DNA of 29,210 bases from a bacterium (GCA_037446635.1 JBBIIG010000052.1:1-29210), one strand, 5' to 3'; positions 1-29,210 are shown, numbered from the stretch's first letter. Translations and numbers: made by a program. Notes: generated from the sequence alone by a model not told the origin.

Positions 1-295
1 TATAATTAGGAAAAGTTAAATTGGCAGGTTGGCTCTGTTCTCCAGAACAACGGATGAAAACTAAACCCAAAATGGCAATCAAAACAATCATCGACTTGTG
101 ATTCATGGCTTGTGTTCCTTTGAACATTATGAGATTTGATGAGATTTGTATATTCATCATAACAGCTCTGTTCGCAAGGGATATTCCAAGCGTAGGAGCT
201 CTTAAAAGTATTTTTTTCATGCGGCATTTTGATATCGCATATTGCCAAGACGGATGGAAATATTTAAAATGATCTGGTTGTTTTCTTTTTACAAT

Positions 296-1204
296 ATGAT
301 TCAACGTAGATATATAATGTTGATCCTCGGCTGTTTTTTCCTGTGGAGCGGGAAAGTATATGCCGGGGCCTGGACGCTCAAGCGCGGCCAGCTCGGGGTG
401 AAGTTTTCATTGTCCTATCAAAAAACCGATGAACGCTATTACTCCAGAATAACCCCCTGTCCTCTTGGACATACCTGCACCAGAAGTGGTCAACGGGTTC
501 CATTTGCTTTTGATGGTGAAAGCCGATTCACCGGTCTGTTCGCTGACGTTAACTACGGTCTCACGGATGAAATCGAGTTTGATTTGCAAATTCCATTTTT
601 CGATATTGCTTTCACCGATGATGTTAATCCTCTCCGGCCTAAAACCGCAGACATTGGTGATATCCGCTTTGGACTGAGATACCGCTATTTATCGAGCCCG
701 GTAGTATCTACCTTAGCCATTGCCGCGAAAGCGCCGACCGGATTTTTTAATAAGGATGCAGAGGTGGTGCCCATTGGCGACGGTCAATGGGACCTTGAAT
801 TCATGGGAGAATTTGGAAAATCACTCTGGCCGGCTCCCGCTTATTTAAACTTGGATTTGGGTTATCGCATTCGATTCGCTCCCGATATCGCGACCTCCAA
901 CCGTGATCCTGGAAACGAATTTTTTTTCCGCGGTGAGGGAGGGTATCATCTCTTCAATAGCCTACTTTTCAAAATTGCCGTTAATGGGCTTTATGGAGCA
1001 AAATTTATTCAAAGTAATCTTGCGATACAGGATTCTCAGCGGCAGGTTTTATATTTTGAGTCTGGTGTTTTTTGGACGATAAAAAAACCCTTGGCCTTTG
1101 ACGCCTCCATACAATACACTCTTTCCGGTAAAAACTTTCCTGCCGGCGCCGTTTATAATGTTGGACTTTATTATTTGTTCTCTTTATGGTCTAAATCACG
1201 ATAA
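296..1204 (+). CDS. Secreted outer-membrane beta-barrel protein (transporter / MetA-pathway phenol-degradation-like family)
   Basis: Long ORF. ATG at 296 gives a signal peptide (MIQRRYIMLILGCFFLWSGKVYA-GAW). Amphipathic beta strands and family-like motifs GDIRFGLRY, KAPTG, IGDGQWD. Start codon uncertain (254/296/317). Confidence 0.7.
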   Translation: MIQRRYIMLILGCFFLWSGKVYAGAWTLKRGQLGVKFSLSYQKTDERYYSRITPCPLGHTCTRSGQRVPFAFDGESRFTGLFADVNYGLTDEIEFDLQIPFFDIAFTDDVNPLRPKTADIGDIRFGLRYRYLSSPVVSTLAIAAKAPTGFFNKDAEVVPIGDGQWDLEFMGEFGKSLWPAPAYLNLDLGYRIRFAPDIATSNRDPGNEFFFRGEGGYHLFNSLLFKIAVNGLYGAKFIQSNLAIQDSQRQVLYFESGVFWTIKKPLAFDASIQYTLSGKNFPAGAVYNVGLYYLFSLWSKSR

Positions 1205-1361
1205 GTTAAACGCCTGCCAGCAAGAGCCACCGTCACATCAATTTTGTCACGCCGAGTCGTTAATTAAAACATCGTTGAATTAATGGCTCGAAATTCAATT
1301 TAAAAATGAATTGGGAAATGCGGATAGGCGCCGGCGCGGGCCACCATCAGCTGAGATTTTG

Positions 1362-1405
1362 CGGGCGCAGACTTTTCATTTCGATTACTCTGCGCCCGTC
1401 TTTTC
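1362..1405. terminator. Probable intrinsic terminator between convergent genes
   Basis: 10-bp stem CGGGCGCAGA (1362-1371) / TCTGCGCCCG (1389-1398), followed by TCTTTT on the + strand; lies just past the stop of 1407..1982. Confidence 0.5.
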
Positions 1406-1406
1406 C

Positions 1407-1982
1407 CTACTGAATATTCACTGGAAAATCGATATCGATATCCGTCTCCGGACTGCGGGTGACGCCGTCTTTCGCAACTTCGTCGTAGTGGGCCAGAACC
1501 ACATTCAGCGTTCCCGATGCCGCCGGGCCGGCGGATACCGCCGCCGTAAATTCCAGGCCGATGGGAAGATTGTTGGCGTCGCGGTCCGTGATGGTCACGG
1601 TCACCCGAGCGGCAATGCCTCCCTCGGCAGTGTAGAAGAATTGATGCGCATCGGCTTCTTCTTCCACTTCCTCGGTAACATCTTCCGCTGGATTAACGCT
1701 CTCATTTAAAAGTTGAATCGCGCCGGTGTAAGTCTTACCAGCTTCCAAGGTCAACGTGCCGATGACCGGCGAATTGCCGCCGTCGCCGTCGAGGTCTTGA
1801 AATTGCGCAGTAACCTGGTTGGTTGTGCCGGTTTCGGTTAATGTCAGAATCACCGTGGTGATGAGTTCTTCTTCGCCGGGTCCGGCAGGATTTTTGTCGT
1901 CGCCGCAACCAAAATTGAACAACATCGCGCTAACGGTTAGGGCGAAAATCCAACGCAGTGATTTTTTGAAAATGGAATTCAT
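1407..1982 (-). CDS. Lipoprotein partner of the TonB-dependent receptor (acidic, His-containing, putative metal-binding)
   Basis: RBS AGGAGG before ATG 1982; lipobox FNFG-C26; motifs EEELITTV, EVEEEADAHQFFY and LNVVLAH resemble lipoproteins encoded after TBDTs in FCB-group bacteria. Confidence 0.85.
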   Translation of the reverse strand: MNSIFKKSLRWIFALTVSAMLFNFGCGDDKNPAGPGEEELITTVILTLTETGTTNQVTAQFQDLDGDGGNSPVIGTLTLEAGKTYTGAIQLLNESVNPAEDVTEEVEEEADAHQFFYTAEGGIAARVTVTITDRDANNLPIGLEFTAAVSAGPAASGTLNVVLAHYDEVAKDGVTRSPETDIDIDFPVNIQ

Positions 1983-2136
1983 GATTGAACCTCCTGTTGA
2001 AAGGTTAATGTGAAAGTGACGTAAGTTGACATCCGACTGAAAGACTTAGATGTTGATCAATGACAGCGCCAGTCCTTGACACTGACAATTTAATAATCGT
2101 GCAAAGTCGTTTTTTACCAAGGCGATGCCGGCTTAC

Positions 2137-2281
2137 TGTCATTTCGAGACGGAGCGCAGCGGAGTCGAGAAATTTGACGAAGAATTGCATCGGCGAATAC
2201 GCCCAGAGCTATTGGCATATTATGAGCCGTGCATCACCAGATTTCTCACCTCGACCAAAAGCGTCGAGCTGAGAAATGACA
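2137..2281. repeat. REP-like palindromic element (TGTCATTTC...GAAATGACA)
   Basis: 9-bp terminal inverted repeat plus inner GAGAAAT/ATTTCTC arms; same design as the element at 26620-26710. Confidence 0.7.
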
Positions 2282-2300
2282 CGAACTTTGGGCGGAATTC

Positions 2301-2636
2301 TCAGGCCAGAACCGTCGGCGGGGCGCGGGTGGAAAAGATGGAGAAAATATTTGCAGTAAGACTGGCGACGAGTCTCGGTGAGAAAATCAGCTCGATGAAA
2401 AACGGCGCGAAGCTGTAACGAGCGCACACCGTGCTCACGTTCAGCAGCGAGTAGGTGCATGCCCGGCAATCGAATCGCAGGGTTGGGTTACTCGGATTGG
2501 CGTCTGACCCGGCCTCATTTTCGACGAAGCTCACCGCGCCGCCAAACCCGTGCTGATGCGCCAGCTCGACCGTGCTCGAGAGCGCCAGCAAAATCACCGC
2601 TAACACCTGGGCGGTGACGGTTTTAAACTTTTTCAT
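2301..2636 (-). CDS. DUF2946/CruR-like leader protein 2 (signal-anchor, HxH, CxxC, RAPP), 111 aa
   Basis: ATG at 2636 with GAGGT RBS at 2641-2645; hydrophobic N-terminus, ELAHQH, CRAC, TRAPPTVLA-stop; colinear with 5182..5520. Confidence 0.8.
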   Translation of the reverse strand: MKKFKTVTAQVLAVILLALSSTVELAHQHGFGGAVSFVENEAGSDANPSNPTLRFDCRACTYSLLNVSTVCARYSFAPFFIELIFSPRLVASLTANIFSIFSTRAPPTVLA

Positions 2637-2713
2637 AGCAACCTCTGGTCTTGTCTTTGGCATTTCATTTATGACAAGGTGGATTAATGGATTGTTGCTG
2701 CATAGAGCAAAGT

Positions 2714-2741
2714 AAAAAAGGCGCCATGCGCTCTGCGCCTT
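2714..2741 (-). terminator. Probable intrinsic terminator after the TonB-dependent receptor
   Basis: Minus strand reads AAGGCGC-N10-GCGCCTT-TTTT, starting 3 nt after the TBDT stop codon. Confidence 0.55.
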
Positions 2742-2744
2742 GCC

Positions 2745-5090
2745 TTACGGCGCGAATTGGCCAAACGAGACCTGCATCCGCAAGACGACGTTGCGCCCCG
2801 GGTCGTCGATGAAGTAGCGAAATCGGCTGAGATAGTCGCGGTACGCCGTGTTGAATACATTGTTGACGCTGAGATAGATGAGGATCGGATGTCGTCCCAC
2901 TATGGTTTGCGTTCCCAATTCAAGATCCAGCAATTTGTATCCCGGCGGTGGATCGGTGTAATCGGCGTTGGCGGGCGCGCGATCCTGCCGCCGCACCAAA
3001 GTCGCCGAGATTTCGAAATAGGTATTTTCAAAACTCCCGAACGCCGGCAAATCGAAATGATTGATCCATTGCAGCCGATCGGACGGCATGAAGATCAACG
3101 GTTCATTGGTATCGAGATTGTCTGCTCGCACCGCTGAGGCCCGCGCCCCCAATCGGTAAAAGGCGAACAACTGATAATCGAACGTCAAATCGGCGCCGCG
3201 CAGCACCGCGTTGGCCTGACGATAACTAAACGCCGGAAACGCCCCGCGAATGGTTAAAATCGGCTCCGGCTCCGGGAACAGGAAAATAAAATCGTTGATG
3301 AAGTTGTTGTAAACGCTCAATTCGAGATGACTCTTTTGGCCCAGGTTGCGCAGCGTCGCATCTATGTTATAACTTTTCTCGGAGGTCAAGTTGGGATCGC
3401 CCTTTTCGTATTGCGCGGTGCCGTGGTGCACGCCGTCGCTGAACATTTCATTGACGCTGGGCGGCCGCCATGCCGTGCCGACGTTCACTGCCAGCGACCA
3501 CGCCGGCGCAAATTGATAGATCATCCCCACCACGGCGGAGACATTGTGCCAGTGGTTGATCTGCTCATCATCCGGATTCTGACGGAAGGCATACGCTCGC
3601 TGCCAGCGATAATCGAAGCGGCCGCCAAAGTTGAGGGTGAAATTTTCCTTTGTCCAATTCTCGAGGAGGAAAACGCCGAAGTTGTAGGCGCGAAAATTGG
3701 GAATCAAAAAGCCGCTGGTTTGCCGGAAGTTGCCCTGCCACATTCCGCTGACTCCAAACGTGCCGAAGAAATTTTTCACGGGTCGATGGCGGAATTTGAT
3801 GTCGCCGGAGTGGGTGTAGAGCTTGAGATCGAACGCGGCGTTTTTCGGCGGCTCAGATGAAAACGGAGAATGGGCGTCGAACTCCTGCCGGTGATTGAGT
3901 TGGAAACCGTACTGCGCCTCCAATTTTCCCAGCCCGATAAAATCCGACTGACCTTTGACCGAAATCAAGTCATGGCTGATCTTCTGCTTGGGCGGTTGGA
4001 TATCGTAGGTGAAATCTTTCTCCACCAGCGGCCGTCCGCGCTCGATGGCGTTTTGCAGATCCGTTAAGTTGCCAATATGCGAGCCGCGGAAAATTCCCAA
4101 CTCGGTTCCGAAATGACTGTAATAAAATTCAAGTTCCGATTGCTCGCGATGGTAGCCGGCCGCCAACGACCAGTCCCGCTCTTCAAAACCGGAGTTGTTG
4201 ATGACATAATCGGGCGCGCGCGCATCGCCAGCTTTGCGCAGACTGCCTTGCAGTCTCCAGCTCAAGCGGCTTATCCTCGGCGCGCGCCCTTCCAGAAGCA
4301 GCGACCCGGCGACCTGACGGTTGTTCGAGAAACCGTTGGCAAAAATCTGCCCGCCCAATCCTTGAATTGCCATCAATTGCCGCGGCTCCACGCGCACCAC
4401 CCCGCCGATGGCGTTGGAGCCGTACTCCACGCCGGCCGCGCCTTTCAGCACCTCGATTTTCGCCGGCGCAAAGGGATCGATCTCCGGCGCATGTTCGGCG
4501 CCCCATTGCTGGCCTTCCTGCGGCAGACCGGCATTCAGCACCAACACCCGCTGGCTGTGGAGCCCCCGCACGACTGGCTTAGAGATCGACGGGCCGGTTT
4601 GCAGCACGGTCACGCCGGGGATTTCTTTCAAGGTTTCGCTGAACGTCTGGCCGCGGTGCTTTTCCAGTTTTTCGGCGCTGAGAACCGTAACCGATTGACG
4701 GGAGCGCGTGAGCTCGACTTCCTCCTTGCTGGCGGTTACCGTCACTTCGGAAAATTCGATGACCGTGGGCGTCAAATAAAATTTCTTTTCGAGATTGCCG
4801 GTGATTTCTATGCTTTCCTTCACCTCCGTGTATCCCACAAAGCGACAGACAATGGTGTAGCTTCCTTTCGTCAATCTTTTTAATTGAAATTCACCATTGG
4901 CATCCGCGACATCGCCGCGATTCAGTTCCGCTATATAAATCGTGGCGCCGGGCAGTGGATGGTTGGTGGCGGCGTCGAGCACTTTTCCGGAAACAGCGGC
5001 CAGTTCGCTTTCCGGCGTGGCTGGCAGTCGCGCCGCAAAACTTAAGAGCAATAACAAAATTGTAAGCCGAGGTTTGAATAACCTGGTCAT
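2745..5090 (-). CDS. TonB-dependent outer-membrane receptor, probably for a transition metal
   Basis: Signal peptide; N-terminal carboxypeptidase-regulatory-like domain (SGKVLDAATNHPLPGATI); TonB-box-like EVTVTA; plug motifs (IPGV, KPVVRGL, IEVLKGA..EYGSNAIGGVV); barrel end NNVFNTAYRDYLSR..PGRN; His motifs GAEHAPE, GSHIGN, GVHHGTA. Confidence 0.95.
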   Translation of the reverse strand: MTRLFKPRLTILLLLLSFAARLPATPESELAAVSGKVLDAATNHPLPGATIYIAELNRGDVADANGEFQLKRLTKGSYTIVCRFVGYTEVKESIEITGNLEKKFYLTPTVIEFSEVTVTASKEEVELTRSRQSVTVLSAEKLEKHRGQTFSETLKEIPGVTVLQTGPSISKPVVRGLHSQRVLVLNAGLPQEGQQWGAEHAPEIDPFAPAKIEVLKGAAGVEYGSNAIGGVVRVEPRQLMAIQGLGGQIFANGFSNNRQVAGSLLLEGRAPRISRLSWRLQGSLRKAGDARAPDYVINNSGFEERDWSLAAGYHREQSELEFYYSHFGTELGIFRGSHIGNLTDLQNAIERGRPLVEKDFTYDIQPPKQKISHDLISVKGQSDFIGLGKLEAQYGFQLNHRQEFDAHSPFSSEPPKNAAFDLKLYTHSGDIKFRHRPVKNFFGTFGVSGMWQGNFRQTSGFLIPNFRAYNFGVFLLENWTKENFTLNFGGRFDYRWQRAYAFRQNPDDEQINHWHNVSAVVGMIYQFAPAWSLAVNVGTAWRPPSVNEMFSDGVHHGTAQYEKGDPNLTSEKSYNIDATLRNLGQKSHLELSVYNNFINDFIFLFPEPEPILTIRGAFPAFSYRQANAVLRGADLTFDYQLFAFYRLGARASAVRADNLDTNEPLIFMPSDRLQWINHFDLPAFGSFENTYFEISATLVRRQDRAPANADYTDPPPGYKLLDLELGTQTIVGRHPILIYLSVNNVFNTAYRDYLSRFRYFIDDPGRNVVLRMQVSFGQFAP

Positions 5091-5181
5091 ATTTACCTCG
5101 TTGAGAAAAATGAAAAAATGCTAAGCTAAACCAGCGTCGGTTTGGCCTGGACACAAAGCACTGAAGTTGTTGAGCAGGAAA

Positions 5182-5520
5182 TTAAGCGGGTTGAAGAGGA
5201 GGAGCGCGGTTAGAAACCGATGATTGAATCAGAATGGCAACAGGATTGTGAGTGTGGGATTTAAAAGCACAAGATTCAAAATGGGGAGAGAATAAATCGC
5301 ACTTGATTTCTCCAGATAGGTTGACGGTGGCGACCATGCACGCGAGGCAGACGAAAACGTGGATCGGCCGCTGCGCTGTCTCCGCGGCGTCATGGTTGGC
5401 GCTCACCGCCGCGGAGTCGTCCACCGGCGCGTGGCGATGACTCAGCTCGGCAGCGCCTGCCAGAAAAATCAGCGCGATCAAAATCGCCGTTGCGGTTGGT
5501 TTTCGCCCGTTACTTTTCAC
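5182..5520 (-). CDS. DUF2946/CruR-like leader protein 1 (signal-anchor, HxH, CxxC, RAPP), 112 aa
   Basis: GTG start; hydrophobic N-terminus, ELSHRH, CLAC, NRAPPLQPA-stop; ends 91 nt upstream of the TBDT start. Confidence 0.85.
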   Translation of the reverse strand: MKSNGRKPTATAILIALIFLAGAAELSHRHAPVDDSAAVSANHDAAETAQRPIHVFVCLACMVATVNLSGEIKCDLFSPHFESCAFKSHTHNPVAILIQSSVSNRAPPLQPA

Positions 5521-18787: not shown

Positions 18788-19444
18788 ATGCACAAGATGG
18801 ATTCGCAACCGAACCGCAATCTCCCGGAGACCGCTCTCATCGGGCTCAGCGACCACGATGTCGAGTGCTTGCTGGAATTAGCCCAAACCGGAGATTCCGC
18901 TGCCAAAGAACGACTGCTGGGGTGGGCCTATTTCACCGCGCACCGCTACTATCGACTCAAAGTCCCCGCGGAAAAGGCGCTGTCCGCGGAAGATGCCGAG
19001 GAATTGACTACTGCTTTTTTTCTGGAATTTGAGAGTAATCTGCCGCAATTACAATGCGCCACCCGCTATACCCGCTACGTCCTCAAGCAGAATCTGCGGC
19101 GCTATTTGAGGCGCAAAAGAATGCGTCGATGGCGCGCGGGATGGCCTTTGCACAACGTGGAGAAAAGCTCCGCAGCCGCTGTTGCAGATGAGCCCGGGTC
19201 GCCCTGGATGGCCTGGAGCGACGAGGACTTTTTCCAGTACCGCGCGGTGCTGCAAGCCCTCCATGAAACCGATGACACCACGCGGCGGGTCATACAATTT
19301 CGACTGGAAAACCCACCTTTGCCTTACCTGGAAATTGCGGCGCATTTAAACCTGTCGGAGACCGCCATTCGTATGCGCGTAACGCGATTCTACAGTCTGG
19401 TTCGCAAAATCTATGTTACTTTGACCAGAGGTCGTTCCCTATAA
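18788..19444 (+). CDS. ECF-type RNA polymerase sigma factor (divergent)
   Basis: Region 2-like LLELAQTGDSAAKERL..AEDAEELTTAFFL..NLRRYLRRKR; region 4 HTH YLEIAAHLNLSETAIRMRVTR. Start may be 18797. Confidence 0.85.
   Translation: MHKMDSQPNRNLPETALIGLSDHDVECLLELAQTGDSAAKERLLGWAYFTAHRYYRLKVPAEKALSAEDAEELTTAFFLEFESNLPQLQCATRYTRYVLKQNLRRYLRRKRMRRWRAGWPLHNVEKSSAAAVADEPGSPWMAWSDEDFFQYRAVLQALHETDDTTRRVIQFRLENPPLPYLEIAAHLNLSETAIRMRVTRFYSLVRKIYVTLTRGRSL
19414..19443 (+). promoter_or_regulatory. Putative ECF promoter, copy A (TGTTAC-N17-CCCTATA)
   Basis: Both boxes and the spacing are identical at 24304 and 24390; overlaps the sigma stop codon and ends 41 nt before the next ATG. Confidence 0.7.
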
Positions 19445-19484
19445 CAAGTAGGAACGCCGGATTGATGAATGGAGAAGACGGCCA

Positions 19485-20279
19485 ATGAAAAAACAGACAC
19501 TCGATTCCCGCACAATTGAGCGGATGCTGCGGCTGGCCCATACTCCGCCGGACGACGCACTTTTGCGGCGCTATTTCAACGCGTGCGCCGGAAAAGATGA
19601 CGGCTCCGCGCTGACGGATGCAGAACGGCGCTGGCTGACGGTGAATCTGGATGCAAATCCCAATTGGCAGCAAAAGTGGAAAGAACTGGAAAAGGAAATC
19701 GGCCATTCGGTGGATTGGCGGCGGCAGGCGCGGTTTCCGCAGGCTGCGGTCAAGTCTGAGCCGGTGGTCAAACCCCGCTTCTTTGAGGAATGGCTGCCGC
19801 GGGTTCAGCCGCAGTGGGCCTTCCGGCTGGCCTTCGCTGCCGTGGTGTTGGCGGCTTTGTATGGAACCCTGTGGCTGGTGGGGAGATGGGGTCTTCCGAA
19901 AACCTATGAACTGGCATCCGTGGCGAGCCATGAAGAATTTTTGAATGTTCGCGTGCGCGGAGAGTCGGTTGCAGCCGAAGCCGAGTTTGCCGCCGGCGCA
20001 GAGGCACTGCTCAGCGCACCGAAAGATTGGCTTGGACTGTTTCCCCACTACGATCGCCAAAAGGTGGACGTGGCCATCGTCCTTTTGACGCGGGCGTTTG
20101 AAGCCACGGACGATCCATTTCAACGCGCCGAGATCGCGTTTTTTCTCGCCAAAGCATATTTGATGAAAGATGAAATCACCGGCGTTAAACGCTGGCTGAA
20201 CGAAGCGCTGGCTCAAAATGTGGCGGATTATCGGAGAGAGGCAACTGAGCTGCTGAAAAAATTAGCGGAGAAAAATTGA
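19485..20279 (+). CDS. Putative membrane-anchored anti-sigma factor with C-terminal TPR-like helices
   Basis: Directly follows the ECF gene; N-terminal LLRRYF..LTDAERRWLTVNLDANPNW resembles an anti-sigma domain without Zn ligands; one TM helix (LAFAAVVLAALYGTLWLV); TPR-like AFFLAKAYL..WLNEAL..EATELLKKL. Confidence 0.7.
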   Translation: MKKQTLDSRTIERMLRLAHTPPDDALLRRYFNACAGKDDGSALTDAERRWLTVNLDANPNWQQKWKELEKEIGHSVDWRRQARFPQAAVKSEPVVKPRFFEEWLPRVQPQWAFRLAFAAVVLAALYGTLWLVGRWGLPKTYELASVASHEEFLNVRVRGESVAAEAEFAAGAEALLSAPKDWLGLFPHYDRQKVDVAIVLLTRAFEATDDPFQRAEIAFFLAKAYLMKDEITGVKRWLNEALAQNVADYRREATELLKKLAEKN

Positions 20280-20303
20280 ATAATTAAATCTGCTCGCTCA
20301 ACG

Positions 20304-20597
20304 TCACATATCTGAAGTTACTCTGAATTTGTCGGAAGTTAAGTGCATCCTTACCCCTAAGGCGTAGCAAACTTTCAAGAAAGCCTTGATATTGAAATTC
20401 GATCCCTTTTCAATCTTCGAAAGTTGTTGTTGTGTTATTTGCGCTTTGCTGGCGAGTTGGGATTGGGTTAAGCCTGCTTTCTTTCTCTCTTCAAAGATTC
20501 TATTTGATAATTGAAGTAATTGGATCTCTTCTTCATACATTTCTTTGAATTCTTTGTCCTTGAGCTTTTCCTCTAAATGTTCATTGAGTGTCTTCAT
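20304..20597 (-). CDS. XRE-family HTH protein, HigA-like antitoxin
   Basis: LEEKLKDKEFKEMYEE N-terminus and ERKKAGLTQSQLASKAQITQQQLSKIEKG HTH; AT-rich relative to neighbours. Confidence 0.85.
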   Translation of the reverse strand: MKTLNEHLEEKLKDKEFKEMYEEEIQLLQLSNRIFEERKKAGLTQSQLASKAQITQQQLSKIEKGSNFNIKAFLKVCYALGVRMHLTSDKFRVTSDM

Positions 20598-20677
20598 CGG
20601 CGATACCCCTTTGAATATCTTTCGAGAAAATCATCACGATATTTTATTGCTCTTTTTATTTCTGATTTCGGAATCTT
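20594..20677 (-). pseudogene. 3' remnant of a RelE/HigB (Gp49-like) toxin gene
   Basis: Reads KIPKSEIKRAIKYRDDFLERYSKGYRR-stop, typical of a Gp49/HigB C-terminus; its stop overlaps the antitoxin start (ATGA); only 11 nt separate it from the CHAT stop codon. Confidence 0.7.
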
Positions 20678-20688
20678 GAACTCAAGAA

Positions 20689-23600
20689 TCACTTTCCTAT
20701 CAACACAAACGGCGCCCAGAAATACGGCCGCGCGTATTTCGGATTCGACGCCATCAGATGCAACTTGGCGGCTCGCAGGGCATCCCTTTTGGACGCGCCA
20801 TTTAGCATCTCGTCATAAAAAGCGGTCATCAACTCCGCGGTGCTGACGTCGTTCACCTGCCAGAGCGACACCAGCAGGCTGGCCGCGCCGGCGTAGAGAA
20901 AGCCGCGGGTTAATCCCAACAAACCCTCGCCGCGCGCCATCTTTCCCAGCGCGGTCTTGCACGCGCTCAATACCACCAGATCGGCGTTCAATTTTAAATT
21001 GTAAATTTCTCCCAGATACAGCACCCCATCTTCCGATGATGTAGGCTCCGACGCGAGAAGCAGGCCGGAGAGTTTCGGCCGCGTCTCGTTGATGAGGCCG
21101 TGGGTGGCAAAATGCACAAACCGATAGACATCGAGCGGTTCAGCTTTCAGCCGACGCTCATCGGCCTGTTTCCCGGAAAGCACCCGCGTGTTATTGCCAA
21201 ACCAACGTCTGAAAAATCCCGCGCGCTGGCGGAACAATTCCTCGACTTGTGAAACCTCCTCTCGGGTTGCCGGCAAATAGGCGCTCCGCAGGCTCAGGGT
21301 GGAATCCACATTCCGGTTCGACTGGATGAAATCCGAGCCGCGAATGCTGCTTGCTTCGCCTTCAGAAAAGATAGGAGCCAACGCCAGGTAGTCGCGGGGC
21401 GCCGACTGGCGCGAACGGCCAAGGGTTTCCAACAACAACGTCGCGGAATAGGCATAGCTCACCGTGCGCTCTTTGAGCAGAAATGGCAGAGCGCGATAGT
21501 CTTTCCTGCCGGTGTCAGGTCGCACTTCCCGGGTGAGCAGCGCTTCGAAAGGCACGAAGCACAGCGGGCCGTCCGGAACAATGATGAGATGCGACGCGCT
21601 GAGTTTCCTAACAATGGGCTGGATGAGAGTCTGGTAAAGTGAGAATGCCGTACGGCAGAAGGGTTCATATTCCTGTGCCAACACACTCTCTCGCAACTGC
21701 TCGACCTTCTGCTGAAACGAGGAATCGATGCCCACCGCAACGAAATCAAGTTCATTGCGGCTTACCACAGCGATGAAGATGGAATCCGCTCCCACGAAGT
21801 ATTCCACCAGCGCAGTGCGGTCGTCGAGGAGTTTTTCCCGGACCTCGTCCACCGACGCGAGGTTGATGCGGTATTTGAGGTTGTAATAATCTGGATAGCT
21901 CGCCTCAAAATTATCGAGCAGCGATTCATAGGCCCGCTGCAAATCAAACAGCTTGCTTTGCCAGGCGATTAATTTTGAGCTGTCGGCTGCCGCGCCCTTG
22001 ATTTCTTCTTCGCCGGCGAGGCGATCGTAGTAAGCCAGGTCGCCGCGCAGGTGCTGTTCTTTTTCTAGCAAGGAATCCGCAATGCCCGCGAAATGCTTGG
22101 CCTCGGCTTCAGCCAGGGCGTCCAGCAGCACGCCGGCTTTGCTTTTCTCCATATATTGGAAAATCTGCAGTTTGTACACCGGATCGTTGGTGATATGGTA
22201 CAATTTCATCGCTGTTCGGATCGCCAGGTTATAGATTTCCACGGCATTTTCGGCCAGGAACAACTTGGCGCCTTCGGCTTTGTAGCCGTGCCGGAGTTGA
22301 TCGACGAGCTGGAGGGCCCGCTTACCGGCGGAGTTAGCAGCATGTAGATCAGGAGCGGGCCGCGCAGACCGCGCCGCCTTTTCTAACAGCGCGGTGGTTT
22401 TTCGCTGCAGCGTTTGCAGCAACTGGGTTTCGGAGAGCACTCGTTCGTCAGTTGGATTTTTCGTCGGATCAGGGTTGGAGAATCCGGGCGCATTGGCCGC
22501 GAGGGCGCGCTGATAGTTAACGAGGGCGAGATCGTACTGGCGCTGCCGGGTGTGTACGTCACCTATCAAGTCATAACACAACGCAAGTTCGGGATGGTGC
22601 TTTCCGTAAACGGATTGAAAGACCGCCAGGGCTTTTTGGTAAGATTCAAGCGCCTTTCGGTAATCGGCTTTTTTTGCATAATCCGATCCCAGGTTGCCAT
22701 AGCCGCGCGCCACCATAACGTGCGTTTCGCCCAATGAGGGCAAAATCATATCCAGCGCCTGGTTATGGTAGTCGATGGCGCGGGAAACCTGGCCCATCTC
22801 GAAATAGACATTGCCGAGGTTCATGTAGGTGCTGGCGACACGCCAATGGCGCTCTCCGAATTCTTGCTTCAGAAGAGCGATTGATTTTTCATAAAGCGTC
22901 ACGGCCGCTGCGTAATCTTTTTTGGCAAAGTTGACCAGGGCGAGATTGTGATGGACATTGGCCAATGGCAAAGGACCCACCTCTGCCGGCGGCAGCGCCT
23001 GCCAGATGGCCAGCGCCTTTAAGTAGTATTCGCGGGCGAGGTCGAATTCGCGTTTAAAAATATAAAGATTGCCAAAATAAAAAAAGATATCCCCGGCTCG
23101 CCAATCTTTGAGTTCGGGCTCCGCCTGCTTCCAGATAGTCAGTGCGGCCTCGAGATGCGGCAGGGCGAGGTCATATTGCCCTTTCTCCATGTAAGTGCCG
23201 GCAAACCGTATTTGACAATCCATCTTTTGGTGGGTCGGCGCGCCGGGAAGCGCCTGCAAAATCTCAAATTCTTTTTCAAAATACGCCAGGGCTTGCTCGA
23301 GCGCACTCTTGCTAATTTGAATGCGGCCCAGCTTTTCATAAATCAGGGCGATCAACTCATGATGTTCGCCGAAGCGACTGCGTGTTGTATCCAGCAGCGC
23401 GGTGAGTCGTTCCTCGCTGTCCTGCACGTTCAATTTGCCGAGGCTCATTCGTTTCATGGCCAATTCCACGGCGGTGCGCACGTACCCCTCCCAGTCCTGC
23501 GCTTGCCGATACACCTGGCTGGCCTGTTCGTAGTAGGCGAAGCTGCTGTCGTGTTGAAGGGTTTTAGCGAAGTGTTCGGCGCGGGCAACGAGCTGCTCGG

Positions 23601-23769
23601 CAGGGGACTCCTTTTTTCCGGAAACGCCTTCTTCCGCGCCGCGCACCTGCAGGGAATCGATAGTGGAAGACTGTTGTTCCGACTGCTTTTCCTGCGAACA
23701 AGCAAAAAGCAGGATAGCGGCCAGGGTAATCGCTCCCGGCCGGGATTTTTGACTTCCCCGGGCAAACAT
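20689..23769 (-). CDS. Lipoprotein TPR-CHAT (caspase-like, clan CD) protease
   Basis: Lipobox LFA-C24; many TPR repeats; CHAT motifs LIIVPDGPLCFVPFEAL, VHFATHG (catalytic His), LVVLSACKTALG (catalytic Cys), GEGLLGLTRGF..SLWQVND, PYFWAPFVLIG. Confidence 0.92.
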   Translation of the reverse strand: MFARGSQKSRPGAITLAAILLFACSQEKQSEQQSSTIDSLQVRGAEEGVSGKKESPAEQLVARAEHFAKTLQHDSSFAYYEQASQVYRQAQDWEGYVRTAVELAMKRMSLGKLNVQDSEERLTALLDTTRSRFGEHHELIALIYEKLGRIQISKSALEQALAYFEKEFEILQALPGAPTHQKMDCQIRFAGTYMEKGQYDLALPHLEAALTIWKQAEPELKDWRAGDIFFYFGNLYIFKREFDLAREYYLKALAIWQALPPAEVGPLPLANVHHNLALVNFAKKDYAAAVTLYEKSIALLKQEFGERHWRVASTYMNLGNVYFEMGQVSRAIDYHNQALDMILPSLGETHVMVARGYGNLGSDYAKKADYRKALESYQKALAVFQSVYGKHHPELALCYDLIGDVHTRQRQYDLALVNYQRALAANAPGFSNPDPTKNPTDERVLSETQLLQTLQRKTTALLEKAARSARPAPDLHAANSAGKRALQLVDQLRHGYKAEGAKLFLAENAVEIYNLAIRTAMKLYHITNDPVYKLQIFQYMEKSKAGVLLDALAEAEAKHFAGIADSLLEKEQHLRGDLAYYDRLAGEEEIKGAAADSSKLIAWQSKLFDLQRAYESLLDNFEASYPDYYNLKYRINLASVDEVREKLLDDRTALVEYFVGADSIFIAVVSRNELDFVAVGIDSSFQQKVEQLRESVLAQEYEPFCRTAFSLYQTLIQPIVRKLSASHLIIVPDGPLCFVPFEALLTREVRPDTGRKDYRALPFLLKERTVSYAYSATLLLETLGRSRQSAPRDYLALAPIFSEGEASSIRGSDFIQSNRNVDSTLSLRSAYLPATREEVSQVEELFRQRAGFFRRWFGNNTRVLSGKQADERRLKAEPLDVYRFVHFATHGLINETRPKLSGLLLASEPTSSEDGVLYLGEIYNLKLNADLVVLSACKTALGKMARGEGLLGLTRGFLYAGAASLLVSLWQVNDVSTAELMTAFYDEMLNGASKRDALRAAKLHLMASNPKYARPYFWAPFVLIGK

Positions 23770-23822
23770 TTCATCTAAGAGGTTTGATGACTACCGTCAT
23801 TTTTTAGTCAGGGCCAGTGTTG

Positions 23823-23890
23823 TCATTCAGGAGGAAACTTTTTTGATAACAGGATTTAGCTGAAACTCTGAAAGGATTCCCCCTGAATGA
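23823..23890. repeat. Imperfect inverted repeat upstream of the CHAT gene (TGTCATTC family)
   Basis: TCATTCAGGAGGAAACTTT ... AAAGGATTCCCCCTGAATGA. Confidence 0.55.
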
Positions 23891-24076
23891 TCTCAGCGGC
23901 AATAATGTAAAACGTTCTGATCCAACAAGCAAATTTTTTTATGGGTGACTTCCATGAACAGCGGTGCTGGCTTAACTTAAAGCCAAAGACGGACGGAAGC
24001 CACCTTTAGTATTACCAATGAACGTTTGCATTTTTTTGCAAAGAATTGACACTCTAAAAATTGCCAGGCATCAAGC

Positions 24077-24144
24077 TGGAGTAATGGAGTTTTGGAGTAC
24101 TGGAACTAACTGCCATTGATCCATTACTCCATTACTCCATTACC
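24077..24144. repeat. Inverted pair of octamer tandem arrays
   Basis: TGGAGTAA TGGAGTTT TGGAGTAC TGGAAC followed by CCATTGAT CCATTACT CCATTACT CCATTACC. Confidence 0.65.
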
Positions 24145-24303
24145 CCGCTTCGATTGGCACGCCCTCCTTTAGTTAAGACGTGTTTGATTAGTTATCACTG
24201 CGGCTTTGCCGCGCTGGGAGCTGCAGAATTGATTCCGCAGCGGCTGGGCTGTTTTTAAGGCGCTCAACCTAAGGGAGTGATAATCAATTTTTTAAAAAAA
24301 ATC

Positions 24304-24333
24304 TGTTACATCGCCCAATGATCCTGCCCTATA
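24304..24333 (+). promoter_or_regulatory. Putative ECF promoter, copy B (TGTTAC-N17-CCCTATA)
   Basis: AAAATC-TGTTAC-atcgcccaatgatcctg-CCCTATA. Confidence 0.7.
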
Positions 24334-24389
24334 TAGACAAATCCCAAACACAAAAAAATAAACCTAAAAACGGATGGGCAGAAAAATCT

Positions 24390-24419
24390 TGTTACATCAA
24401 GACGGTTATGTTCCCTATA
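24390..24419 (+). promoter_or_regulatory. Putative ECF promoter, copy C (TGTTAC-N17-CCCTATA)
   Basis: AAAATCT-TGTTAC-atcaagacggttatgtt-CCCTATA, ending 98 nt before ATG 24518. Confidence 0.7.
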
Positions 24420-24517: not shown

Positions 24518-25081
24518 ATGAACCGATTCGTTACTGTTTTCGCCGCTGCCGCGCTCTTGCTGAGCCTGGCGGCTGCCGATGCTCGCGCGCAAACCTGGCA
24601 AATGCTCGCCAGCTTTCCCGGCCGCCCGGCCAGCGCATTTGTCTTCGCGGCCGGCAGCGTGCGTTTCAGCGTAAAAGACCGTCTGGACTTCGACGGCGAC
24701 GGCGTGGCAGAGATCGCAATGATTGCGGTCGTCGATCCGACCAACCCCAATGTCGTCTATCTTAAAATTCACAGCGGCGCCGATCCCAATCAGCAATGGC
24801 AAATTCCCCTGCCCAATGGTATCATTGCCATTCTTATCGGCTTTCTTGACTTCGATGGCAACAATGCCAAAGACATTCTCTTGGCGCACAAAGTGGGGCG
24901 GCAGTTTGTCAACCCCATGGTCCTCTATAACATTGATGTGAACTCTGGCACGTATGAAGTTGGCATTCCTGATGGCAGCACCGTGCTGATAGGTGGCTGG
25001 GACCTCGACAATGACGGCTATTACGAACTCGTCGTCGGCAGTCCGGACAAAAAAGAAGTGCAAATCTGGGGCTTCAAATAA
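24518..25081 (+). CDS. Secreted FG-GAP/VCBS-like (DxDxDG) repeat protein
   Basis: TAAGGAGG RBS; signal peptide ending ARA; DFDGDG..EI, DFDGNN..DI, DLDNDG..EL motifs. Confidence 0.85.
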   Translation: MNRFVTVFAAAALLLSLAAADARAQTWQMLASFPGRPASAFVFAAGSVRFSVKDRLDFDGDGVAEIAMIAVVDPTNPNVVYLKIHSGADPNQQWQIPLPNGIIAILIGFLDFDGNNAKDILLAHKVGRQFVNPMVLYNIDVNSGTYEVGIPDGSTVLIGGWDLDNDGYYELVVGSPDKKEVQIWGFK

Positions 25082-25093
25082 TCGGAGGACACC

Positions 25094-26578
25094 ATGAAAC
25101 GAATCACGCTTGCGATCGCGGTCATTCTTCTGTGTTCTGCTTCTGCCTGGGCGCAGATCGGCAGACTCTGGGAATCCTTTGAAGGCGCAAAATTCCGGCC
25201 GCCGCGGCCCAACAAGTTCATTCTCGAAATTGCCGGATTCCAAACCCCGACCGATGACGATCGACCCGCCATCATCGCCATCCTGATCGGTTTGCAAAAT
25301 CAGGGGGCAGCAGGGCAAGCACCGGCCTTGGCCCCAGCCGAGCCTGCTGCGGCACATCAAGTAGAGGACAGGATCGTGGTCTATGACGTTGCGGATAGCA
25401 GCGAAATCTGGTCCCTGCCATTGTCAACTTTGACCGGCGGGCAGCCAGCCGACAGCATTTCTATCAATACGGTCGGCTTTGTGCGTTTTCGCGGCACCGG
25501 GTCGACGCAGGCCACTTCACAAATGTCCTTCAGCAAGCATGCCATCGTCAGCTATGAGTGGGATTTTAATTATGACGGGATTTATGATCCCATGGAGCGT
25601 TTTCTATCCATCGTCGATCCAAACACCAATGAAGTGGTGTTTATGGAGCAGGGAGCGCTGCCGCTGGGGGTGTGGCAACGGCCGGATGGCCGGGTGGTTT
25701 TGCTTGAAGTTCTGGTAGCGGCAAAAAGAATCGCCGTCATTGGCGAGACCGGCGGTAGTGGTGGCTCCTTGGGTTCAACCGCGCCTCCGGCTTCTGCCGC
25801 AGCGCAACAAACGGCTGGCGCCTACCAGCTCGCGCTGAAATTTCAGGCTGAACCCGAATTGCGGCTGGCCTATGATCCGGAGCTTTTCGATCCTCCCGGC
25901 GACAATGATCTGAATGGCGACGGACGCTCCGACATTGCCATGCTGGTGGAAGACGCCAACGATGAGCCGCAAGGGGTGATTGTACGAGACGGACAAAGCT
26001 TCGATATCCTCTGGCAGTTCCCATTTCCCGATGAGCACAAAGAGAACATTCGCAAAGGATTTCACGGCTTTGTGGATGCCAATGGCGACGGCGAAAAGGA
26101 AGCAATTGTCGGCAACAATCTGGCAGTGACCCTCGATGGTACGGTGCACACCATCGCCGAGGATTTTCAGATTGTCGATGTCAACGATCTCGACAACGAC
26201 GGCTTTGAAGATATCATCGGCCTGAGCACGGTAGACAGCTCGGTGGTGGTGTACGGAATCCTGAAGCCGACTTCGGTGTCGGACTACGATCCATCGGAAA
26301 TACATTTCCGCCTGTTCCAGAACTATCCCAATCCCTTCAATCCCTCGACCGTGATCACCTATTCGGTGGCGCAGTCGGGCGAGGTGACGCTGAGGATTTT
26401 CAACACCCTCGGCCAGGTAGTGCGCACGCTGGTCAATGAGCGCAAACCCGCGGGCGAATACAGCCTCACCTGGGACGGCCGCGATGACGCCGGCCAGTTG
26501 CTGAGCAGCGGACCGTACTTCTATCGCCTGAAAGTAGGCGAGGCGGTCGAGACCCGGCGCATGCTGTTCTTGAAATAA
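25094..26578 (+). CDS. Secreted FG-GAP/VCBS-like repeat protein with FlgD-Ig/T9SS-like C-terminal domain
   Basis: GGAGG RBS; signal peptide ending AWA; DLNGDG, DANGDG, DLDNDG; QNYPNPFNPST..WDGRDDAG. Confidence 0.88.
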   Translation: MKRITLAIAVILLCSASAWAQIGRLWESFEGAKFRPPRPNKFILEIAGFQTPTDDDRPAIIAILIGLQNQGAAGQAPALAPAEPAAAHQVEDRIVVYDVADSSEIWSLPLSTLTGGQPADSISINTVGFVRFRGTGSTQATSQMSFSKHAIVSYEWDFNYDGIYDPMERFLSIVDPNTNEVVFMEQGALPLGVWQRPDGRVVLLEVLVAAKRIAVIGETGGSGGSLGSTAPPASAAAQQTAGAYQLALKFQAEPELRLAYDPELFDPPGDNDLNGDGRSDIAMLVEDANDEPQGVIVRDGQSFDILWQFPFPDEHKENIRKGFHGFVDANGDGEKEAIVGNNLAVTLDGTVHTIAEDFQIVDVNDLDNDGFEDIIGLSTVDSSVVVYGILKPTSVSDYDPSEIHFRLFQNYPNPFNPSTVITYSVAQSGEVTLRIFNTLGQVVRTLVNERKPAGEYSLTWDGRDDAGQLLSSGPYFYRLKVGEAVETRRMLFLK

Positions 26579-26734: not shown

Positions 26735-26795
26735 GTAACGGCGACATAGTCGCCGTACTCCAAAATATTTGCCTAAGACATACAGGAGCAAAATT

Positions 26796-28610
26796 ATGAA
26801 GAACAGATTTTCTTCTCTCGCGCTGGCGGCGTTGCTGCTCGCCAGCCTGGGGTCCCCTGCGCTTTTCGCGCAGTTTTATGAAATCAAACATGAAATCATA
26901 AATGCCTACGGCTGGTTTGGCGGCGACAACCGGCCCATGCAGCAGCGCACGGCCGGCGTCGGGCAAAGCGTCTTGATCGATACCACGATGACGGTCAGGA
27001 GCTTCGCCTTTTATTTCAGAGGGCCGTTTGATTATGCCTTCAATCCCGAGGGCAGGGGGCACGCGGTCACCTTGACGCTGAACGTGCGGGATGCGAGCGG
27101 TATCATTCTAAAAACAGTGCAAGCGGTCGTGCCCGATAGCTTTTCCGCCGGTTGGATCACCTGGCAAGGCATCAATCTGCTGGCCGCCGCCAATACGACG
27201 CTCATCTTCACCTGCTATCAAGTCGGCGCGTACGATTCTGCTCAATACACCGCGAGCCACGGCGCCGATGCCAGCCAGAGCTATACGAATGGCGTTCGCT
27301 ATGGCAAAGATGGTACGAGCGATGCGGACATGGAAAGCTGGACCGACTGGGTGGTGCACCCGAGCTGGGATTCGGCCTTCCGGCTGGAAGGAACCTTAGG
27401 CCCAGCATCCAACAAGAATTGCGATAAAACTTCCATCGGGCAGGTGCCGCTGAACGACTTGGGCACGGGGACTTATCAAGGCTATCAGGGTGGGCTTTAT
27501 CCCGGCGGCAGCAACGGCCTGCCCATTGCGCACAAAGCTGCCGGGCTTGCTGCCGCGGCGCAGGTCAGGCCGTTGGACCAATCAGGCAACGTGGATTTGA
27601 CCAACGGCAAGATCGCGCTCATTTCGATTGGGCCATCCTTCGCCACCATGGAATTTTCCGCCTTTCAATTTCTTGCCGGCCAGGATGTGTCCATTAACCC
27701 CAAACTCGTGCTTGTCGATGGCGCGCAAAGCGGCCAGTCCGCGGAACAATTTGCCGATACCTCCGACAATGTCTGGAACGTGATCGCTCAGCGTTTGAGC
27801 AATGCCAATGTGACGTCGAAACAGGTTCAGGTAGCCTGGGTCAAGTCCGTGAACGCGGTGCATACTGCGGGGTTTCCCGCTGACCAGACCAAACTAACCG
27901 GCGACCTGGCGACCATCTCCAGAAATCTCAAGGCAAAATTCCCTAACATCAAACTCGCCTATTTTTCCAGCCGGTCATACGGCGGTTATGGAGGGAGCGA
28001 GCCTTATCCGTATGAAACCGGCTTCGCGGTGAAATGGCTGATCGAGAACCAAATCACCGGCGACACCACGCTGGCCTTTGGTGGCGCCAACCCCAAAGCG
28101 CCGTGGCTGGTGTGGGGACCGTATTTCTGGGCCGATGGCACCACGCCCCGGCAGGACAGCCTGGTTTGGGAGTGCAGCGATTTTCAAGACGACGGCACGC
28201 ACCCTTCGCTGTTCGGACGCGCGAAAGTTGCAAGACTGTTGTTGACCTTCTTCAAAACGGATTCCACGACCAGCTTATGGTTTCTCCGAAATCCACCGAC
28301 GTCGGTTGAAGCGAATCGCCACGATTCTCCACGGGCTTTCGCCCTGGAACAGAATTATCCCAATCCCTTTAATCCAGCGACGACGATTCGCTATGTTCTT
28401 GAGCGTGACGATGAAGTACGGCTGGTGATTTATAATGCGCTGGGAAAAACCGTGCGCACACTGGTGCACGGTCATCAACCCGCTGGTGAACATACCGTCG
28501 TTTGGGATGGAAGAAACGATCTCGGTCAACCGGTGGCGAGCGGCAGTTATTTCTACCAGCTAAAAGTTGGAAATACTTTTTCCACCAAACGAATGTTAGT
28601 TCTGCATTAG
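26796..28610 (+). CDS. Secreted multidomain protein: N-terminal domain of unknown function, SGNH/GDSL-like hydrolase domain, FlgD-Ig/T9SS-like C-terminal domain
   Basis: AGGAG RBS before ATG 26796; signal peptide; ISIGPSF (Ser), DGAQSG, DGTHP (DxxH); QNYPNPFNPAT. Confidence 0.8.
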   Translation: MKNRFSSLALAALLLASLGSPALFAQFYEIKHEIINAYGWFGGDNRPMQQRTAGVGQSVLIDTTMTVRSFAFYFRGPFDYAFNPEGRGHAVTLTLNVRDASGIILKTVQAVVPDSFSAGWITWQGINLLAAANTTLIFTCYQVGAYDSAQYTASHGADASQSYTNGVRYGKDGTSDADMESWTDWVVHPSWDSAFRLEGTLGPASNKNCDKTSIGQVPLNDLGTGTYQGYQGGLYPGGSNGLPIAHKAAGLAAAAQVRPLDQSGNVDLTNGKIALISIGPSFATMEFSAFQFLAGQDVSINPKLVLVDGAQSGQSAEQFADTSDNVWNVIAQRLSNANVTSKQVQVAWVKSVNAVHTAGFPADQTKLTGDLATISRNLKAKFPNIKLAYFSSRSYGGYGGSEPYPYETGFAVKWLIENQITGDTTLAFGGANPKAPWLVWGPYFWADGTTPRQDSLVWECSDFQDDGTHPSLFGRAKVARLLLTFFKTDSTTSLWFLRNPPTSVEANRHDSPRAFALEQNYPNPFNPATTIRYVLERDDEVRLVIYNALGKTVRTLVHGHQPAGEHTVVWDGRNDLGQPVASGSYFYQLKVGNTFSTKRMLVLH

Positions 28611-28768: not shown

Positions 28769-29210
28769 ATGAAGACGCATATTCAACCAATGGTCTTAAC
28801 GCTTCTGTTGGGGACCAAACTTTTGGCGCAAAGCCAATGGACATGGCAAAATCCCCTGCCGCAGGGTTACACGCTGCATGCTTTGCATGTTTTCGATGCC
28901 AACACGGTGTTGGCCGCGGGCGAGGCGGCCACGGCGATCAAAAGCACCGACGGCGGCGCGAGCTGGAGTTTGCAGCACAACCTCGGCGGCGAAATGATCG
29001 TGGTCGAATTGGAATCCGTTGCGTTTGTCGATGCGAACACCGGGTATGCCGCCGGGCCGGGCGACCGCATTTTCAAAACGATGGATGGCGGCGCCACCTG
29101 GTCCGTGCAAAGCGCCGGCGTGTTTTCCACGCTGCACGCGGTTGATTTCAGCAATGCTCAAACCGGCTGGGCGGTTGGCGACGGCGGTACTATCCTCAAA
29201 ACCACCAACG
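28769..29210 (+). CDS. YCF48/BNR-repeat beta-propeller secreted protein, partial (runs off the window; absent from the ORF track)
   Basis: TAAGGAGG RBS; manual translation MKTHIQPMVLTLLLGTKLLAQSQWTWQNPLPQGYTLH..KSTDGGASW..FVDANTGYAAG..KTMDGGATW..GWAVGDGGTILKTTN. Confidence 0.9.
   Translation, partial: MKTHIQPMVLTLLLGTKLLAQSQWTWQNPLPQGYTLHALHVFDANTVLAAGEAATAIKSTDGGASWSLQHNLGGEMIVVELESVAFVDANTGYAAGPGDRIFKTMDGGATWSVQSAGVFSTLHAVDFSNAQTGWAVGDGGTILKTTN

Follow-up and report, generated by a model that had tools for sequence, protein, structure and literature searches.

A bipartite motif at the 3' end of a divergent ECF-type sigma factor gene: a predicted cognate promoter in a proposed module of sigma factor, anti-sigma factor and caspase-like lipoprotein

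What reads the bipartite motif TGTTAC-N17-CCCTATA, three exact copies of which lie in a 29,210-nucleotide stretch of bacterial DNA (GCA_037446635.1, JBBIIG010000052.1:1-29210; hereafter the window, by which we always mean the whole stretch), one in the end of a gene for a sigma factor of the extracytoplasmic function (ECF) type and two upstream of a cluster of genes for secreted proteins? The original prediction took the motif for the cognate promoter of that sigma factor. It proves to be a private, oriented and conserved bipartite element tied to the sigma factor encoded at 18788-19444, and we consider it highly probable that it is a -35/-10 promoter read by this protein, within a module of sigma factor, anti-sigma factor and TPR-CHAT lipoprotein wired for negative feedback. 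The components concerned are:

19414..19443, plus strand: motif copy A, an exact match (predicted -35 TGTTAC, 17 nucleotides, predicted -10 CCCTATA) within the final codons of the sigma gene; it would drive the anti-sigma gene (ATG at 19485)
24304..24333, plus strand: motif copy B, an exact match with an A-tract ahead, upstream of the secreted-protein cluster
24390..24419, plus strand: motif copy C, an exact match 86 nucleotides past B and 99 nucleotides short of the ATG at 24518
18788..19444, plus strand: divergent ECF-type sigma factor of 218 amino acids with sigma2-like and sigma4 halves, reaching no curated family
19485..20279, plus strand: predicted single-pass membrane anti-sigma factor of 264 amino acids, with no Pfam match, assigned by hydropathy, alignment and complex model
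20689..23769, minus strand: TPR-CHAT caspase-like protease of 1026 amino acids, a predicted lipoprotein (lipobox Cys24), Pfam CHAT E 4e-68 plus TPRs, convergent to the anti-sigma gene

The three copies, all on the plus strand and all with a 17-nucleotide spacer, are a number reached by none of 100 dinucleotide shuffles (shuffle mean 0.00). They are also the only exact copies in the 4.64-megabase genome, versus about 0.005 expected from half-site frequencies, and among spacers of 12 to 22 nucleotides tested genome-wide none except 17 yielded an exact copy; the genome-wide scan that the original prediction had called for adds no target to these three. Relaxed scans of the assembly gave no convincing further target, lower-scoring matches being equally common at shifted spacers, and scans with the sigma-70 consensus found nothing at any of the three copies. 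The exact repetition with identical spacing is therefore borne out, as is the presence of AAAATC 0-2 nucleotides ahead of each copy (2, 0 and 1 for A, B and C). The description of the spacers as largely dissimilar is only roughly true, with 9 of 17 bases shared between A and B (binomial p ~0.012, a little above chance), 6 of 17 between A and C and 4 of 17 between B and C. Copy A does lie within the final codons of the sigma open reading frame (ORF), its closing TA being the start of the TAA stop codon. The intergenic region that contains copies B and C separates divergent genes, because TPR-CHAT is read from the minus strand with its start at 23769, a circumstance unmentioned in the original prediction that made a separate test of orientation necessary. 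The same intergenic region contains, at 24071-24150, a short inverted repeat resembling repetitive extragenic palindromic sequences, with units GGAGTA(A/C)T and ATTACTCC.

The named relatives belong to KSB1/Zhuqueibacter and Rhodothermales, from which we infer that the window comes from the phylum KSB1. For the sigma/anti-sigma type, 14 orthologous loci were collected (one of them, L014, ends before the anti-sigma position and was grouped by the tree); together with the window they form one side of a branch with support 96/95. In 10 of the 14, GT(T/A)AC-N17/18-(C/G)CCT lies at the 3' end of the sigma gene, and the motif recurs ahead of the divergent gene, in the place of copy B, in seven of the eight loci that reach past the CHAT start; the spacer measures 17 nucleotides in 19 of the 20 aligned sites and 18 in the other. 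Since GTTAC reads Val-Thr in the window and Arg-Tyr in nine loci and falls past the stop codon in L016, and since CCCT stands in non-coding sequence in each of the ten orthologues with a sigma-end copy, the motif is independent of coding. A matrix built from 16 orthologous sites, with no window site among them and the 18-nucleotide site left out, ranks the window copies first genome-wide, at 22.4 bits versus 16.0 for the next match. A-tracts occur 5' of GTTAC, giving the consensus (A-tract)-YGTTAC-N17-CCCTATA. The cargo downstream varies, with differing secreted proteins in the KSB1 loci. In a Rhodothermales genome (L016:8676-14560) the genes that the motif faces form a cluster of lanthipeptide type (Lant_dehydr_N, Lant_dehydr_C, LanC-like). 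A divergent member, L061 (G444:C61), has anti-sigma and CHAT genes; ahead of its sigma gene lies a different motif, ending in GKGTC (see below), and CCCTATA is missing from the end of that gene, possibly an intermediate state.

Across genomes, the motif follows the sigma factor. Within the window's phylum the exact motif is found in all five genomes that have the sigma gene versus 8 of the 162 that do not (Fisher p 1e-6, kinship uncorrected), and all nine matches in those eight lie inside ORFs. Among 401 genomes of the class of Rhodothermales, it occurs in three of the five with both sigma and anti-sigma genes, in none of the 23 with a sigma of the sister clade described below, and in 16 of the other 373, always as a single copy, a weaker co-occurrence than in the window's phylum. 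One Rhodothermia genome, G190 (a single 5.3-megabase contig), carries 10 exact copies versus none in the control. Eight of them point at a recognisable gene on the same strand, namely its own anti-sigma gene (from a copy at the end of the sigma gene) and genes for two large FG-GAP secreted proteins, an oxidoreductase, a receiver-domain protein, a Wzz-domain protein, GlgC and an ABC ATPase that we take to be LptB-like. One of the FG-GAP genes is divergent from an unlinked TPR-CHAT gene, and the copy there faces away from CHAT; among the loci, no motif points at the CHAT gene. Four of the exact G190 sites are flanked on either side by genes read in the same direction as the motif, so that a reverse reading would be antisense to the upstream gene, which fixes GTTAC as the upstream element. 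Together with the same-strand genes faced by all three window copies and by those eight G190 sites, this upholds the predicted orientation toward a downstream gene. One-mismatch matches inside the G190 anti-sigma gene and inside its oxidoreductase gene were treated as chance. Another exact site (L092:1500-1650; G190:C1:2690978 onward) has, in place of a long gene, a terminator-like hairpin with a T-run ~110-150 nucleotides or less downstream, and may mark a sigma-dependent gene for a small RNA or a short peptide; Rfam gave no matches in four loci, this candidate included.

Is the protein encoded at 18788-19444 a sigma factor? At 218 amino acids it shows the ECF composition of sigma2 and sigma4 only in about 200 residues, according to profile and fold matches that stay below cut-off: Pfam Sigma70_r4 and Sigma70_ECF as well as TIGR02937 (E 3e-8) all score under their thresholds. 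Its family profile matches solved ECF sigma factors in the PDB, and its AlphaFold2 model (predicted local distance difference test, pLDDT, 90.9) has two helical halves for which the Foldseek matches listed are sigma factors throughout. Neither the family nor its -10 element was found in the text searched of the ECF re-classification (PMC7826278), whose searched supplement text contains no occurrence of CCCTA, CCTA or TGTTAC, and paper searches outside the subscription literature yielded no description of the family or the motif.

The protein encoded downstream comprises an N-terminal helical domain, a transmembrane segment at residues ~111-134 and a periplasmic TPR-like end, as judged from hydropathy and alignment; Arg158 in its periplasmic linker is invariant across 12 aligned anti-sigma proteins, among whose N-termini no CHCC zinc pattern is conserved. 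A model of the complex between the sigma factor and anti-sigma residues 1-85 scored 0.83 versus 0.00 for the best control, with a partner pLDDT of at least 81 and contact agreement between runs of at least 80%; the mark for such models was reached by 116 of 157 solved pairs versus 2 of 215 mismatched ones, a calibration that holds only roughly with own alignments. The modelled interface consists of sigma region 4 plus the preceding helix, and we predict that the membrane protein is an anti-sigma factor binding region 4 through its N-terminal domain. A second anti-sigma gene of the window's own genome (L009:8701-10140, contig C19), which spans a run of N and lies behind an unrelated ECF sigma gene, encodes a homologous periplasmic end (43% identity) with a different N-terminus.

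No CCCT-type motif lies upstream of the sigma gene in any of the 15 loci (best plus-strand score 11.1 bits), which, with the passing complex model, supports the prediction that copy A would drive the anti-sigma gene and not the sigma gene itself; the model supports, without showing, the induction of the inhibitor from copy A. The third component, the TPR-CHAT protein, retains intact His890 and Cys937 motifs in the window; the dyad motifs are present in 11 CHAT proteins, six of which have a lipobox-like start. The TPR-CHAT part of the Myxococcus xanthus protein DdvA has been proposed as a site-1 protease, and RseP does act on truncated DdvA (PMC11506125). By analogy with this system and its sigma factor DdvS, the TPRs of the lipoprotein protease may bind a periplasmic signal; the signal-bound protease would then cleave the periplasmic linker of the anti-sigma factor, with Arg158 as candidate site (here the analogy extends to Craspase, see below), and a site-2 protease would complete the cleavage and free the sigma factor. 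Once free, it would switch on the secreted-protein cluster through copies B and C and raise anti-sigma expression through copy A. With sigma and protease made from other promoters and only the inhibitor induced, such a response would be self-limiting, not self-amplifying.

Related sigma factors help to place this layout. The sister clade comprises 23 loci (L030, L035, L055, L056, L058-L060, L062-L076 and L078), with no CHAT or long anti-sigma gene alongside; most adjoin a gene that is presumably rhomboid-like. In 21 of the 23, GTTAY-N15-GKGTC lies ~50 nucleotides upstream of the sigma start, an arrangement that is probably a sigma cascade. We rejected as unproven that this GKGTC motif is the clade's own autoregulatory promoter, since another sigma family bears the same motif at its 3' end, including in 7 of 13 loci from genomes in which the sister clade was not found; likewise that its difference from CCCTATA reflects co-variation of -10 and sigma2. 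Of five further genomes lacking the sister clade, three also have the GKGTC motif in abundance. Residue differences between the two motif classes fall on a single tree branch and are uninformative on specificity, and GTTAC matches ~3.8 kb upstream of some sister-clade sigma genes were set aside because their flanks are conserved and coding-like (the coding sequence there presumably encodes ribosomal protein L9). About half of the sister-clade loci have GAATCC-N14/15-CGTA behind the sigma gene. In five (L030, L055, L056, L058 and L076) a membrane protein of 81-106 amino acids follows right after the sigma stop, a candidate minimal anti-sigma whose N-terminal L(S/T)DxEIDxLI helix resembles the modelled sigma-binding helix.

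The other, distant ECF family is near-core, present in 157 of the 401 genomes of the Rhodothermales class (L126:426-1070 and L136-L165, in Rhodothermia genomes, e.g. G290:C2:1133525-1134169). Its downstream membrane protein weakly resembles the window anti-sigma (blastp E 0.005-0.8; a common short motif), and among its 30 best-scoring loci (G)GTTAY-N15-GKGTC lies at its own 3' end in 22 and upstream in none, so that the 3'-end layout and the GTTAY upstream element recur in related sigmas. The GKGTC motif reaches 23 copies per genome versus 0-1 in the control. Fifteen genome-wide matches were examined: three are the sigma-end sites, one each stands ahead of recA, radC, a YifB/ComM-like gene and a ComEA-domain gene, and several of the rest fall within ORFs. 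We infer that the second family reads this motif, and regard it as a candidate competence or DNA-repair sigma factor.

Several findings weigh against reading CCCTATA and its partner half-site as the promoter of the window sigma within the proposed module. The protein stays under every curated cut-off, and template-modelling scores of its whole chain against solved sigma factors reach just 0.23-0.34, as expected with two mobile domains. The sigma-end copy is absent from 4 of the 15 sigma/anti-sigma-type loci (L014, L057, L061 and L077, the more divergent ones), L015 has an 18-nucleotide spacer at this place, the orthologous sites were picked with a window-derived pattern inside syntenic windows, and many loci are close kin (L010, L012 and L013; G055 and L015). 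Two of the five Rhodothermia genomes with sigma and anti-sigma genes have no exact copy. In G190, two of the ten sites face no recognisable gene, ~135 kb separate the CHAT gene from the sigma gene, and a tolerance of one mismatch gives 14 matches in genome and control alike, so that the signal is confined to exact sites. As to the protease, signal-induced CHAT cleavage was not observed for DdvA (PMC11506125). The predicted cognate ECF promoter nevertheless draws support from positional conservation, fixed spacing, co-occurrence with the sigma and orientation in a dispersed regulon.

How else could these observations be explained? An ordinary transcription factor, such as the product of the adjacent HTH_3 gene, might use the motif as an operator, or the sigma-like protein might bind DNA without sigma action. 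The presence of the HTH_3 gene in the locus, the scores under curated cut-offs and the unlikeness of CCCTATA to the -10 elements in the ECF supplement text searched (PMC7826278) would fit, but the gene was found by tblastn in none of 13 orthologous loci, the motif is asymmetric and oriented, keeps a fixed 17-nucleotide spacer and tracks the sigma across genomes, and the protein models as a two-domain sigma, all of which makes an operator improbable. We give a similarly low chance to a genuine ECF promoter read by another sigma encoded elsewhere that cross-regulates the anti-sigma gene and the secreted cluster. Cascades do seem present nearby, the upstream motif of the sister clade being more likely read by a different sigma family, and G190 encodes the second family too; however, neither a GTTAY nor a GTAAY motif stands at the end of its copy there, close members of that family are absent from the window's genome (30% identity and E 3e-9 for the best tblastn match), and it is the window-type sigma that the motif tracks in the phylum.

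A promoter running in reverse (TATAGGG-N17-GTAACA), from which the TPR-CHAT gene would be expressed and the sigma gene transcribed in antisense, would account for the location of B and C in a divergent region, for the motif of L016 at 17 nucleotides from the CHAT start and for divergent genes 18-102 nucleotides upstream at several G190 sites. It is very unlikely given that the four G190 sites discussed above are flanked by genes of the motif's sense only, that a further one is followed by a terminator-like hairpin, that A-tracts stand 5' of GTTAC and that the related GTTAY motif lies ~50 nucleotides upstream of same-strand genes. Least likely of all is that the copies are local duplications or chance matches without function, for which one could invoke the post hoc discovery of the motif and the 9 of 17 bases common to spacers A and B: conservation over two phyla at two syntenic places despite changing spacers and reading frame, as well as the 10 dispersed copies in G190, speak against it, and the co-occurrence of motif and sigma already contradicts it.

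Besides the module itself, the region downstream of the anti-sigma gene contains:

20304..20597, minus strand: lone HTH_3 gene (Pfam), a passenger not shared with the orthologous loci
24518..25081, plus strand: signal-peptide protein with FG-GAP repeats (Pfam), 187 amino acids, the first predicted target
25094..26578, plus strand: FG-GAP protein of 494 amino acids with a FlgD-Ig / type IX secretion system (T9SS) type A sorting domain (TIGR04183 above cut-off)
26769..28610, plus strand: secreted protein of 613 amino acids with a FlgD-Ig / T9SS type A sorting domain (domain searches), presumably co-transcribed
28769..29209, plus strand: YCF48/BNR-repeat secreted protein (domain search) ending at the contig edge, presumably co-transcribed

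A short remnant-like frame lies upstream of the HTH_3 gene (region 20304-20690), possibly a decayed toxin-antitoxin pair; the orthologous loci have a different small gene, or none, at this position. The gene ahead of the sigma gene is presumably methionine-synthase-like. Farther away, a minus-strand cluster at 242-5520 hints at metal uptake, as it comprises what are presumably a TonB-dependent receptor, a lipoprotein-like protein of 191 amino acids and two short His-rich ORFs of membrane type. Within the window, no Cas genes were seen.

Each part of the module is of a known kind. A more speculative proposal, which we advance tentatively and hold with much less confidence than the promoter itself, is that these loci represent a so far undescribed ECF group, shared by KSB1 and Rhodothermia, whose -10 specificity (CCCTATA) is new and whose switch is a stand-alone caspase-like lipoprotein, which would cut the anti-sigma factor in trans at a conserved arginine. 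It would be part of a wider lineage of sigma factors whose own promoter lies at the 3' end of their gene and which induce their inhibitor, never themselves, a lineage including the core Rhodothermia sigma with its motif before comEA, a comM-like gene, radC and recA as candidate competence regulator. A search for promoters confined to the sequence ahead of the sigma gene would overlook such groups because the cognate promoter lies at the gene's other end. A -10 element absent from the ECF catalogue text searched would also be useful for specificity rules and makes a candidate orthogonal switch.

How does this module compare with known systems? RshA of Corynebacterium glutamicum is a soluble redox-sensing anti-sigma factor. 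The feedback layout is not new as such: in the SigH/RshA system of that species, according to PMC3489674, the anti-sigma gene alone is driven from a promoter that depends on the sigma factor and lies within the coding sequence of the latter, sigma being made from other promoters, and this internal rshA promoter was proposed to shut the SigH response down. The SigH promoter differs (GGAATA-N16-19-GTT) and no CHAT protease is involved there, whereas CHAT is present in the window; RshA was not compared by sequence. ECF54 (PMC7826278) resembles our system in its neighbouring TPR-CHAT gene, being the sole ECF group with such a mention in the supplement text searched, but it is restricted to Actinobacteria, has no putative anti-sigma factor and uses GTATCAG / CTCC, none of which applies to the window. 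Craspase, with Csx29, Csx30 and CASP-sigma (PMC10028731), likewise combines a TPR-CHAT protease, an anti-sigma factor cut in trans, an ECF sigma thereby freed and local promoter motifs, all of which is prediction for the window; Craspase, however, is RNA-guided and linked to Cas7-11, whereas both window partners are predicted envelope proteins. The type III-B preprint (10.1101/2023.06.23.546230), in its accessible part, gives no cleavage-site rule.

The best reading is that the window module is a split relative of DdvS/DdvA of Myxococcus xanthus (PMC6061681, PMC11506125). Common to both are an ECF sigma factor, a single-pass anti-sigma factor whose small cytoplasmic domain binds sigma4 (in DdvA most tightly; modelled here), a periplasmic TPR-CHAT domain with a His/Cys dyad, a private bipartite promoter and a mostly local regulon. 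DdvA, however, has its TPR-CHAT part fused to the anti-sigma factor and a CHCC zinc site, whereas in the window the TPR-CHAT protein is encoded by a separate convergent lipoprotein gene and the anti-sigma N-terminus has no CHCC. The DdvS promoter, GTAA-n16-CGT, drives its own operon in positive autoregulation and its targets are CBASS (cyclic-oligonucleotide-based antiphage signalling) and CRISPR systems; by contrast, the window motif is GTTAC-N17-CCCTATA, has no copy upstream of the sigma gene and faces secreted proteins. The module offers a ready set of sigma factor, anti-sigma factor, protease and promoters for the open step of the DdvA/DdvS model, namely whether an ECF sigma factor is released by a periplasmic TPR-CHAT protein serving as site-1 protease, and its split genes permit a test of the protease in trans.

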